From Nanobdellota archaeon (lineage in GTDB: Archaea; Nanobdellota; Nanobdellia; SCGC-AAA011-G17; ARS1403), in the NCBI GenBank assembly GCA_018831025.1, contig JAHJRB010000059.1, forward strand, positions 1 to 43,812: a DNA stretch of 43,812 nt, read 5' to 3'. The notes beneath the pieces were generated by a model. It did no database searches. It had not been told where the DNA came from and was given only the letters and a program-made list of their open reading frames with translations. This document shows, piece by piece, positions 10,332 through 11,639 of this stretch; the first letter of the stretch is position 1; every line of letters starts with the position of its first letter. The position numbers and the translations under genes were made by a program.

Positions 10332-11639
10332 TTATTTTAGACATTTTTCTATTTCATTTTTCCATTGTTCATGTGTACCTTTATCACTTTTAGTTAGTCT
10401 ATAATTGTCTTCTTCTAAATGTTGTGTTGAGAATTCAAAAAAAACTGTATCTTGTAAAGCTCTGAAACTATGATATTCATTTGGTTTGATATGAATAGTA
10501 CTTCCTTTTTTAAGTTTAAGATATTTTCCTTGATGAATTATTTCTAGTTCACCTTCTAAAATATAAAATGTTTCTTCTTTAACCTTATGCATATGATAAG
10601 AACAATAATGATCTTGTTTAATAAACATTTTTTTGCCACAATATTTTTCATTATTTACTATCCATTGTTCTTCTCCCCATGTTTTTGGGATTGTTTTTAT
10701 ATTATTAGATAATGAAGTTTCTAATTCTTCTAATGTTATTGCTGTAACACCTGGTTTACTAATTACAATGCTTGCTGCTCCATTAGCTAGTTCTGTAGCT
10801 TCTTTTAGATTAGTTCCCGAGATTAAAGATAGGGTTAATATTGCTAAGACTGTATCACCTGCACCAGAAACATCATAGATTTCCTTTACTTTCGTTGGAA
10901 TATGGGTAATATTTTTATTTTTTTCAAATATAGAAAATCCTTCAGAGCCTTTTGTTATTATTACATTAGAATTTAATTTTTCAACTAGTATTTTTCCTGC
11001 TTTTTCTATATCATTAGTTAGTGTCATTTCAATTGCTTCTTTTTTGTTTGGTTTTATTAGATCTACATTTTTATAAAAAGAAAGATTTATTGGTTTACAA
11101 TCTGCAGTGATTAATTTATTATTTTCTTTTGCAAAGGATATTATATTTTTTACTAAAGTTTCTGTTAATGTTCCTTTAGAATAATCACTTAAAATGATTG
11201 CATCTATTTCTGAAATCTTATTTTTTATTAAGGATAATAATTCTTGTTCATTTTCTTTTGTAATATTTGAAGTATCTTCATAATCAATTCTAAATAAATG
11301 TTGATGTGACAAACCCCTAATTTTTTGTATTGTTGGTTTGGATGTTTTTAGTATACAAGAAGTATTTATGTTATTTTTTTCTAATTCTTTAAATAATATT
11401 TTTTGAGGTTCATCGTCTCCAACTGTGCCTGCTAGGTAAACTTTTGCTCCTAATAAAGCTAAGTTGTTTGCCAAATTTGCTGCTCCTCCTGGATTAAAAG
11501 ATTCTTTTTCTGCTTTTAAAACTGGAACAGGTGCTTCTGGAGAAATTCTAGAAACAGTACCATGGATATGTTTGTCTAACATTAAATCACCTATAACAAG
11601 TACTTTTTTTTCTTTAAATTTTTCAATTAAGTCTTTCAT
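10332..11639 (-). CDS. hldA: heptose-7-phosphate kinase (HldA / RfaE domain I, PfkB family) fused to a C-terminal PMI-type cupin
   Basis: 435 aa. The N-terminal ~310 aa carry GDLMLDKHIHGTVSRISPEAPVPVL and DVSGAGDT (RfaE-I/PfkB). The C-terminal ~115 aa carry WGEEQWIVNNEKYCGKKMFIKQDHYCSYHMHKVKEETFYILEGELEI...EDNYRL, the pattern of type-II phosphomannose-isomerase-like cupins. Confidence 0.75.
   Translation of the reverse strand: MKDLIEKFKEKKVLVIGDLMLDKHIHGTVSRISPEAPVPVLKAEKESFNPGGAANLANNLALLGAKVYLAGTVGDDEPQKILFKELEKNNINTSCILKTSKPTIQKIRGLSHQHLFRIDYEDTSNITKENEQELLSLIKNKISEIDAIILSDYSKGTLTETLVKNIISFAKENNKLITADCKPINLSFYKNVDLIKPNKKEAIEMTLTNDIEKAGKILVEKLNSNVIITKGSEGFSIFEKNKNITHIPTKVKEIYDVSGAGDTVLAILTLSLISGTNLKEATELANGAASIVISKPGVTAITLEELETSLSNNIKTIPKTWGEEQWIVNNEKYCGKKMFIKQDHYCSYHMHKVKEETFYILEGELEIIHQGKYLKLKKGSTIHIKPNEYHSFRALQDTVFFEFSTQHLEEDNYRLTKSDKGTHEQWKNEIEKCLK

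Follow-up and report, generated by a model that had tools for sequence, protein, structure and literature searches.

A cupin domain fused to an archaeal heptose kinase, a probable non-homologous substitute for the sedoheptulose-7-phosphate isomerase GmhA

A kinase-cupin fusion gene in an archaeal heptose cluster

The 43,812-nt contig of a Nanobdellota archaeon analysed here, hereafter called the window, harbours a cluster of genes for nucleotide-heptose biosynthesis (Table 1). The window is archaeal, since it codes for the ribosomal proteins S3Ae, S19e and L31e, for eRF1 and for a histone. In the cluster, a single gene codes for a HldA-type heptose-7-phosphate kinase followed by a cupin domain; the NCBI record of the protein is named 'cupin domain-containing protein [Nanoarchaeota archaeon]'. 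An earlier reading, made from the sequence only, had described this open reading frame (ORF) and proposed that its cupin stands in for GmhA, the isomerase of the pathway. The ORF and both of its domains were found as described, and the cupin motif quoted in that reading (KTWGEEQWIVNNEKYCGKKMFIKQDHYCSYHMHKVKEETFYILEGELEI...EEDNYRL) is present in the protein. Based on the analyses reported below, we propose that the cupin is, in all probability, a metal-dependent sedoheptulose-7-phosphate (S7P) isomerase, a non-homologous substitute for GmhA that is fused here to the HldA kinase.

The Pfam signature PfkB matches residues 11 to 300 of the fusion protein. The TIGR02198 profile, the equivalog of heptose-7-phosphate kinases, aligns with it end to end (residues 5 to 310 with profile positions 2 to 314 of 315) at 343.2 bits for a cut-off of 345. 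The kinase half may thus effectively be regarded as a member of the HldA family, although it falls 1.8 bits below the trusted cut-off. The other pathway genes reported around the fusion, namely those for a second HldA-like kinase, GmhB, HldC and HldD, were all recovered with family profiles. The gmhB gene overlaps the start of the fusion gene by 17 nt, and the second kinase gene lies upstream of gmhB. The cluster also codes for glycosyltransferases (GT), of which the GT9 heptosyltransferase is the likely consumer of the nucleoside diphosphate (NDP)-heptose.

The sequence-only reading had noted that no GmhA with a SIS domain is encoded in the window, and this holds. No SIS domain or GmhA was detected in the window by Pfam scans (42 of the 45 ORFs that have 100 or more residues, the remaining three being nested in longer ORFs) or by tblastn with Escherichia coli GmhA, a probe 100% identical to the annotated lpcA product. 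Unfiltered phmmer and hmmsearch runs on the six-frame translation of the window also found nothing, with a best E-value of 0.64.

Table 1. Features of the window, with family matches and residue assignments
Feature	Position	Strand	Details
HldA-type heptose-7-phosphate kinase with C-terminal cupin, one gene	10332..11639	(-)	435 aa; NCBI MBU2639698.1
Kinase domain (PfkB/rfaE domain I), residues 1-310	10710..11639	(-)	TIGR02198
Cupin domain, residues 315-435 (~120 aa), proposed S7P isomerase	10335..10697	(-)	Cupin_2, Lyx_isomer, AlphaFold2 model
Codons of the predicted metal-binding tetrad	10470..10595	(-)	H349 10593-10595, H351 10587-10589, E356 10572-10574, H390 10470-10472
K354 codon, between the tetrad codons	10578-10580	(-)	Aligns with TsLI K86
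C-terminal motif EFSTQHLEEDNYR	10398..10436	(-)	E402 and E409/D411, equivalents of sugar-binding TsLI E156 and D163
N-terminal cupin motifs	10632..10685	(-)	K319-x-W-G-x-E ('PWG' strand, as in phosphomannose isomerases); N329-x-x-K-Y-C-G-K336
GmhB, heptose-1,7-bisphosphate 7-phosphatase	11623..12186	(-)	TIGR00213, 182.9 bits (cut-off 149.6)
Second HldA-like PfkB kinase, more divergent	12179..13162	(-)	327 aa; TIGR02198, 247.7 bits
HldC, heptose-1-phosphate nucleotidyltransferase	8662..9135	(-)	TIGR02199, 158.3 bits
HldD-like ADP-heptose 6-epimerase (SDR)	7757..8665	(+)	TIGR02197, 237.9 bits
GT9 heptosyltransferase	16471..17532	(-)	PF01075, 92.4 bits
GT2 and GT4 glycosyltransferases, same glycan cluster	13219..15632	(-)	GT2 13219-14103; GT4 14493-15632
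Lysine-rich ORF	9125-10156	(-)	343 aa
SLT lytic-transglycosylase domain	4594-5202	(+)	82 bits
Free-standing LAGLIDADG ORF	25641-26438	(-)	
Cdc48-type AAA ATPase with intein and LAGLIDADG endonuclease	29492-33436	(+)	
Family-B DNA polymerase with intein and LAGLIDADG endonuclease	34362-38279	(+)	

The cupin domain is related to D-lyxose isomerases

The cupin domain was compared with known families by profile searches and by structure prediction. Residues 345 to 397 match the general Cupin_2 signature of Pfam at 39 bits, above its gathering score. The domain also passes the gathering score of the D-lyxose isomerase family (Lyx_isomer, PF07385; 25.7 bits for a threshold of 20.8), the match covering only positions 144 to 188 of the 222-position profile. 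With 22.9 bits, it remains just under the threshold of 23.6 of PF01050, the C-terminal family of type-II phosphomannose isomerases (PMIs), a threshold that some of its relatives pass (P0081 with 26.9 and P0103 with 24.9 bits). The WbuC cupin model TIGR04366 gives 26.4 bits, short of its cut-off of 42, and AraC_binding matches weakly (17.2 bits). AlphaFold2 models the domain as a confident single cupin barrel, with a pLDDT score of 92.6.

A family profile built from the window domain and its 13 closest homologues was then compared with proteins of known structure. Its best matches are D-lyxose/D-mannose isomerases, TsLI of Thermofilum (7nzo, E = 1e-9) and YdaE of Bacillus subtilis (2y0o, E = 7e-8), and its aligned positions (13/19 to 112) represent almost the entire domain. 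Weaker matches were obtained with type-II PMIs (E = 2e-4), Cap5F (E = 0.002) and QdtA (E = 0.11). A structure search returned hundreds of cupins, among which the lyxose isomerases are closest in sequence (21 to 24% identity); the small Thermococcus PMIs 7zvm and 7zvy are also among the matches. The cupin had first been described as type-II PMI-like. That affiliation survives as a borderline PF01050 score, and the nearest characterised family is that of the D-lyxose/D-mannose isomerases.

The similarity to lyxose isomerases is concentrated in four motifs, VNNE[KR]YC.K.L, H.H..K.ETF, H.F.A and EFS.Q..D, some of which are absent from generic cupins. Thus, VNNEKYCGKKL of the family pairs with VNNERYCAKEL and VNTDRYCSKEL of the lyxose isomerases, H.H..KEETF with H.H...KQETF, and EFSTQH.DED with EFSSQSIDE. 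Nevertheless, the window domain does not have the full lyxose-isomerase architecture of ~170 to 230 residues with N-terminal helices and long inter-strand loops. It comprises ~115 to 120 residues. Relative to it, the aligned lyxose isomerases contain insertions of ~6 and ~20 residues, and nothing pairs with their N-terminal 50 to 70 residues. Since it is shorter, devoid of the N-terminal helices and of the two loops, and endowed with additional conserved residues (K319, W321, H407 and R414), we consider it a distinct 'mini' family rather than a lyxose isomerase proper.

In TsLI, contacts to the Mn ion and to the bound sugar (mannose or fructose) are made by K62, H75, H77, K86, E88, H143, E156 and D163, and a cis-enediol mechanism has been proposed in which E88 is the base and the intermediate is stabilised by K86 and the metal (PMC8378251). 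After correction for the 24-residue tag on the PDB chain, these residues correspond to K336, H349, H351, K354, E356, H390, E402 and E409/D411 of the window protein, K336 being part of the N329-x-x-K-Y-C-G-K336 motif equivalent to VNNERYCAK of lyxose isomerase. Seven of the eight are 98 to 100% conserved in 60 homologues linked to heptose genes, and the eighth site is an acidic residue, either E409 or the invariant D411; K336, K354, E402 and D411 are conserved in all heptose-linked members. The structure prediction and inspection of metal ligands suggested in the sequence-only reading gave a confident barrel and, by alignment with TsLI, a His-His-Glu-His site. H407 and R414 are also conserved in the family, the former facing a serine in TsLI and the latter lying beyond the aligned region, and they are candidate phosphate ligands.

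The cupin recurs in fusions and operons of the heptose pathway

When 1.84 billion representative proteins were searched exhaustively with a profile, 201 clusters of cupins were collected at E <= 1e-30; the number rises to 3,087 with a limit of 1e-10 and to 7,447 with one of 1e-3. Among the best 150 family representatives, 27 are fused to heptose-pathway enzymes, with the architectures HldA-cupin, cupin-HldA, GmhB-cupin-HldC, HldA-HldC-cupin, cupin-HldA-HldC, HldC-cupin and GT9-cupin-HldA. The HldA kinase and the cupin are found fused in either order. Together with the cupin-HldC protein of locus L081, at least eight architectures exist, involving HldA, HldC, GmhB and GT9. No SIS domain is fused to the cupin in those 150 representatives. 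The fusions are scattered over the neighbour-joining tree of the family, which argues for repeated, independent fusion events.

The stand-alone gene is nevertheless the commoner form of the family. It occurs, for instance, in a GT4-cupin-HldD-HldA-GmhB operon in a lineage of Woesearchaeota (24 contigs), and in a cupin-HldA-HldC-GmhB operon with overlapping reading frames. Using the cupin as the query, we fetched 80 distinct genome loci with 10 kb on either side, which span DPANN archaea, bacteria of the candidate phyla radiation (CPR), TM6, Pelagibacter, Planctomycetota and other groups. Heptose genes (for HldA, GmhB or HldC) are present in 33 of these loci, with all three in 17, 11 of which also code for HldD. 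None of the 80 loci has a GmhA match within the 10-kb flanks, including with an unfiltered two-sequence GmhA profile. Recurrent weak GmhA matches (E-values of 1 to 6) in orthologous ORFs of L025, L026, L027 and L030 had raised the possibility of a divergent SIS protein, but Pfam identified those proteins as phosphoribosyltransferases.

Complete viral clusters code for either the cupin or GmhA

Loci fetched through the cupin cannot reveal mutual exclusivity, and we therefore sampled gene clusters through HldC. With an HldC alignment as the query, 80 loci (1.24 Mb) were retrieved from the IMG/VR collection of viral contigs. The cupin is found in 49 of them, GmhA in one (L161, E = 1e-26, devoid of the cupin), both in none and neither in 30. 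Most of the latter have no HldA at all or are truncated at the edge of the cluster. Restricting the sample to complete loci, i.e. those that code for all of HldA, HldC and HldD and have flanks of 4 kb or more on either side, left 20 clusters: 19 with the cupin, one with GmhA, none with both and none with neither. No hidden GmhA was detected in any of the sets of loci with the broader two-sequence profile, used unfiltered.

The median distance between the cupin and HldC genes in the viral loci is 802 nt. When clustered at 90, 70 and 50% identity, the viral cupins fall into 43, 18 and six clusters, respectively. Their local gene orders number 17, the commonest being HldA-HldC, HldD, cupin, GmhB. 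Based on the 18 clusters at 70% identity and the 17 gene orders, the sample does not consist of near-duplicates.

Twelve of the viral loci harbour a gene for a GmhB-like phosphatase beside the cupin (E-values of 1e-13 to 1e-23; L111, L122, L137, L148, L149, L153, L157, L158, L163, L164, L169 and L170). A commentary on Tang et al. 2024 describes the phosphatase as absent from viruses, a statement that may reflect limits of annotation or homology. HldA-HldC fusions are encoded on three contigs of giant-virus metagenome-assembled genomes (MAGs) (L121, L125 and L154, labelled GVMAG in IMG/VR), and the cupin lies within a few kb of them in two of the three.

Cyanophage cassettes and their annotations

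The cupin is also present in 35 annotated phage records, all of T4-like cyanophages or marine viruses, with 36 to 44% identity. They include P-SSM2, P-SSM5, P-TIM68, S-CAM1, S-CAM3, S-SM2, S-SSM7, S-T4 and Bellamy. A GmhA-like gene occurs in 13 phage records, such as that of Caulobacter phage Cr30, and the two sets have no accession in common. Many of these records are complete genomes. All 21 cyanophage or marine-virus records that match HldC carry the cupin.

In P-SSM2 and S-CAM1, the cupin gene belongs to a five-gene cassette coding, in order, for HldC (138 aa in P-SSM2), a short HldA-like kinase (148 bits with TIGR02198), a protein of 107 to 114 residues, the cupin and an HldD-like epimerase. 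The short protein preceding the cupin (PSSM2_311, L171:4670-5014; S-CAM1, L172:4697-5020) is annotated as 'phosphoheptose isomerase', which would break the exclusivity if it were a GmhA. This candidate was rejected: PSSM2_311 harbours the DxDxT motif of HAD enzymes (IDIDGT), its only family matches are to HAD phosphatases, none of them reaching the cut-off (TIGR01689 at 1e-8, BT0820 and HAD-IIIA), and neither the P-SSM2 nor the S-CAM1 protein has a SIS match. It appears to be mislabelled and, judging from these matches, to be the equivalent of GmhB for the phosphatase step. Its label has been spread by PHROG 1238, in the auxiliary-metabolic-gene category, and reused in marine virome papers.

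The cupin of the cassette (PSSM2_312, L171:4995-5351) is called 'cysteine dioxygenase' in RefSeq and PHROG 7851, whereas GenBank records name it 'putative nucleotidyltransferase' or 'hypothetical protein'. Family and structure searches bear out none of these names. PHROG 7851 is matched by the window cupin with an E-value of 7e-31. Nevertheless, no cysteine-dioxygenase family was detected by Pfam (E <= 0.01) in the window and phage proteins, and no cysteine dioxygenase is found among the top 50 structural matches of the window domain. The name of PHROG 7851 thus appears to be a mislabel. The cassette contains a candidate for each of the five steps of the pathway only if the cupin is the isomerase.

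Proposed function and alternative explanations

Comparative genomics strongly supports the S7P isomerase function of the cupin. The idea that a cupin isomerase fused to the next enzyme of the pathway replaces GmhA came from the sequence-only reading, and the active-site match, the fusions and operons, the either/or pattern and the disjoint phage records all argue for it. In the scheme that follows, we infer the substrate, the stereochemistry of the product, the metal and the phosphate ligands. The cupin would catalyse the GmhA reaction (EC 5.3.1.28) on a completely different fold. If the cupin works like the D-lyxose/D-mannose isomerases, H349, H351, E356 and H390 would hold a divalent metal that chelates O1 and O2 of the open-chain sugar. 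E356 would shuttle the proton between C1 and C2 via a cis-enediolate, with K354 and the metal stabilising this intermediate. The remaining hydroxyls would be held by K336, E402 and E409/D411, and the 7-phosphate would probably be bound by the family-conserved K319, H407 and R414. The resulting heptose-7-phosphate would pass to the fused HldA kinase for conversion to heptose-1,7-bisphosphate, from which GmhB, HldC and HldD would then yield NDP-heptose for the GT9 heptosyltransferase. Sedoheptulose and fructose have the same C3-C5 configuration. The lyxo/manno configuration that the nearest relatives of the cupin generate at C2 is what the conversion of S7P to the 7-phosphate of D-glycero-D-manno-heptose requires.

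Three known groups of isomerases resemble the proposed enzyme in different respects. The D-lyxose/D-mannose isomerases (PF07385; TsLI 7NZO, YdaE 2Y0O and E. coli Z5688 3KMH) have the same barrel, His-His-Glu-His site and Lys, Glu and Asp contacts, and they perform aldose-ketose isomerisations giving the lyxo/manno C2 configuration. In addition to their larger size (~170 to 230 residues versus ~115 in the window domain) and limited identity, they differ in being catabolic enzymes of free pentoses and hexoses, whereas the window family is found in NDP-heptose biosynthesis and carries additional basic residues that are conserved, its predicted substrate being a C7 sugar phosphate. GmhA/LpcA (SIS, EC 5.3.1.28) occupies the same position in the pathway as the cupin, next to HldA/HldE, GmhB, HldC and HldD, with a mutually exclusive distribution in heptose clusters. 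Its SIS alpha/beta fold has no sequence or structural relationship to the cupin beta-barrel. GmhA also forms the N-terminal domain of tri-domain isomerase/kinase/nucleotidyltransferase enzymes, a parallel to cupin-HldA-HldC, in which the cupin is in the isomerase position. Lastly, the type-II PMI cupins (PF01050; the C-terminal domain of ManC/AlgA; 7ZVM and 7ZVY) are, like the proposed enzyme, sugar-phosphate isomerases tied to the next enzymes of nucleotide-sugar pathways. They have the N-terminal 'PWG' strand in common with the window cupin, and they catalyse the C6 counterpart of the reaction proposed here; they differ by the sub-threshold Pfam score, the weaker profile match and their other partner enzymes.

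That a cupin metalloenzyme can take the place of a non-homologous sugar-phosphate isomerase of the SIS family in archaea has a precedent in the cupin phosphoglucose isomerase of Pyrococcus and Thermococcus. That enzyme has gluco rather than manno stereochemistry, and it is not among the significant matches of the window cupin. It is discussed in PMC8378251.

Among the alternatives, we regard as unlikely that the cupin has an accessory role in diversifying the heptose, for example as an epimerase or ketoisomerase of NDP-heptose or of a heptose phosphate, with a conventional GmhA encoded elsewhere in the genome or by the host. Nucleotide-sugar pathways often employ epimerases and ketoisomerases of the cupin type, the cupin has the weak matches to WbuC, Cap5F and QdtA mentioned above, a cupin-RmlD-NUDIX fusion exists, and the searches of MAGs covered loci rather than whole genomes. 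Nevertheless, all eight contact residues are of the lyxose-isomerase type, and the match to those enzymes is far stronger than that to any epimerase. An accessory enzyme should frequently co-occur with GmhA and be missing from many complete clusters, contrary to the distribution found in the 20 complete viral loci. Moreover, no 4,6-dehydratase, which RmlC-type chemistry needs, was seen in the clusters. The role of NDP-heptose epimerase, which the sequence-only reading had offered as its alternative, is thus disfavoured.

We hold it to be quite improbable that the enzyme is a phosphomannose or hexose isomerase, converting fructose-6-phosphate to mannose-6-phosphate or fructose to mannose, either in an NDP-hexose cluster or as a promiscuous PMI that also serves the heptose pathway. 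This would fit the near-threshold PF01050 score, with P0081 and P0103 above it, the small archaeal PMIs among the structural neighbours, and a cupin-NTP_transferase fusion that looks like a PMI-GMP enzyme with its order inverted and is encoded in a non-heptose glycan cluster. The partners of the cupin are heptose-specific, however, with kinases of the HldA/rfaE-domain-I type, GmhB, HldD and GT9. HldD is a C6'' epimerase, an activity that is meaningless for a hexose, and the either/or pattern is specifically with GmhA. Both this explanation and that of an accessory enzyme fit the active-site homology and the exclusivity less well than does an S7P isomerase.

It is very doubtful that the domain lacks catalytic activity and serves to bind a sugar or to regulate, for instance as an allosteric sensor of the kinase. 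Cupins are often ligand sensors, and a weak AraC_binding match was obtained; nevertheless, the metal tetrad, the general base and the Lys residues are invariant across hundreds of homologues. A kinase-specific regulator does not fit with a gene that is mostly stand-alone and that has four different fusion partners in either order. The cysteine-dioxygenase reading, which comes from the RefSeq name and the PHROG 7851 match, is effectively refuted by the family and structure searches, by the His-His-Glu-His site with its lyxose-isomerase substrate residues, and by a genomic context exclusively of sugar-nucleotide metabolism.

Several points weigh against the S7P isomerase assignment. The lyxose isomerases act on unphosphorylated sugars, and the phosphate site proposed here is one that we only infer. 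In DPANN and CPR MAGs, the absence of GmhA applies to 10 kb on either side of the cupin gene; GmhA or another SIS isomerase (e.g. PHI or KpsF-like) may be encoded elsewhere in these genomes, including that of the window, and in the case of phages GmhA may come from the host. The viral loci are a biased sample, enriched in relatives of DPANN-type HldC, and IMG/VR may contain cellular contigs. Members from TM6 and other bacteria are not clustered with heptose genes, and some members are found in non-heptose sugar-nucleotide contexts. The latter are fused to RmlD and NUDIX domains (P0126, 544 aa), to NUDIX alone (P0023, 326 aa) or to a nucleotidyltransferase of the RmlA/ManC type (P0081/P0174, 345 aa; L089:10001-11038), and thus the family may have more than one function. 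For the cupin-NTP_transferase fusion P0174, a possible link to GDP-heptose synthesis (HddC) was considered and not retained: the fusion belongs to a Pacearchaeota glycan cluster devoid of heptose kinase and may serve another sugar.

The window fusion would be one of many arrangements of a GmhA-substituting family distributed over DPANN archaea, CPR bacteria, cyanophages and other viruses. We consider it likely that the 'mini' lyxose-isomerase-like cupin is the S7P isomerase of the committed step in DPANN, CPR, T4-like cyanophages, giant-virus MAGs and other viruses, that the capacity for heptose synthesis is wider than censuses requiring GmhA suggest, and that both cyanophage labels are mis-assigned. 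Cupin sugar isomerases were known beforehand, as was the displacement of a SIS isomerase by cupin phosphoglucose isomerase. What appears to be new is the role in this pathway, the family itself and where it occurs. Full-text literature searches, which did not extend to subscription-only papers, found no prior description of a cupin heptose isomerase. No NCBIfam model is specific for the family, whose database names are generic or wrong. According to a commentary, a cross-kingdom survey of heptose synthesis published in 2024 intersected homologues of four known enzyme types, and clusters of the cupin type would therefore have been missed or scored as incomplete.

If the assignment is correct, the cupin closes the recurrent 'missing first step' of the nucleotide-heptose pathway in much of the uncultured microbial diversity and in abundant marine phages, and the capacity to make heptose, and with it ALPK1 agonists, is substantially wider than homology censuses requiring GmhA have counted. 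The family would represent a second, non-homologous solution for EC 5.3.1.28. GmhA is described as an antibiotic-adjuvant target (PMC11056994), and a second enzyme type would bear on the spectrum of GmhA inhibitors and on resistance to them. The RefSeq and PHROG labels that feed auxiliary-metabolic-gene analyses of ocean viromes would have to be corrected, the cyanophage 'cysteine dioxygenase' being the isomerase and the 'phosphoheptose isomerase' the phosphatase of a complete five-gene heptose cassette.

Other features of the window and of related loci

Among all fetched loci, two HldA-like kinases are found only on the contig of the window. The second one could be a paralogue, it could be specific for another anomer or sugar, or it could be redundant. 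A lysine-rich ORF with repeated GGK/GKRN-type motifs separates the fusion gene from hldC. It has no Pfam match and occurs in none of the other fetched loci; in relatives, gmhB or hldC is directly adjacent, with no such intervening ORF. It may represent a mobile or lineage-specific insertion. An LPS-type (lipopolysaccharide) GT9 heptosyltransferase is encoded in this DPANN archaeon. The window also codes for an SLT lytic-transglycosylase domain that could act on the peptidoglycan of a bacterial host or neighbour. Further along the window, the genes for a Cdc48-type AAA ATPase and a family-B DNA polymerase each contain an intein with a LAGLIDADG endonuclease, and a free-standing LAGLIDADG ORF lies near them.

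In TM6/Dependentiae and related bacterial loci, a conserved ORF of ~185 codons with no Pfam match directly follows the stand-alone cupin gene, ~350 to 950 nt downstream (L031, L033, L034, L037-L039, L041, L043-L045, L050 and L062). The neighbours of the cupin in the TM6/Dependentiae locus L045 code for LpxK, an MraY/WecA-type transferase, phosphatidylserine decarboxylase and ribulose-phosphate 3-epimerase (Rpe), an environment compatible with a role in LPS synthesis or the pentose phosphate pathway, but uninformative. A more distant clade with 26 to 31% identity is found in Planctomycetota, Lentisphaerae, Spirochaetes and related bacteria (L066, L071, L073-L080 and L082-L088). We did not include it in the functional family, as no linkage to heptose genes was ever seen in its loci. 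Lastly, additional GT9 genes flank the cluster in many loci of Woesearchaeota and Aenigmatarchaeota (L009, L012, L029, L055 and L061), and in L001 an STT3/AglB gene is located 4 kb from the cluster.

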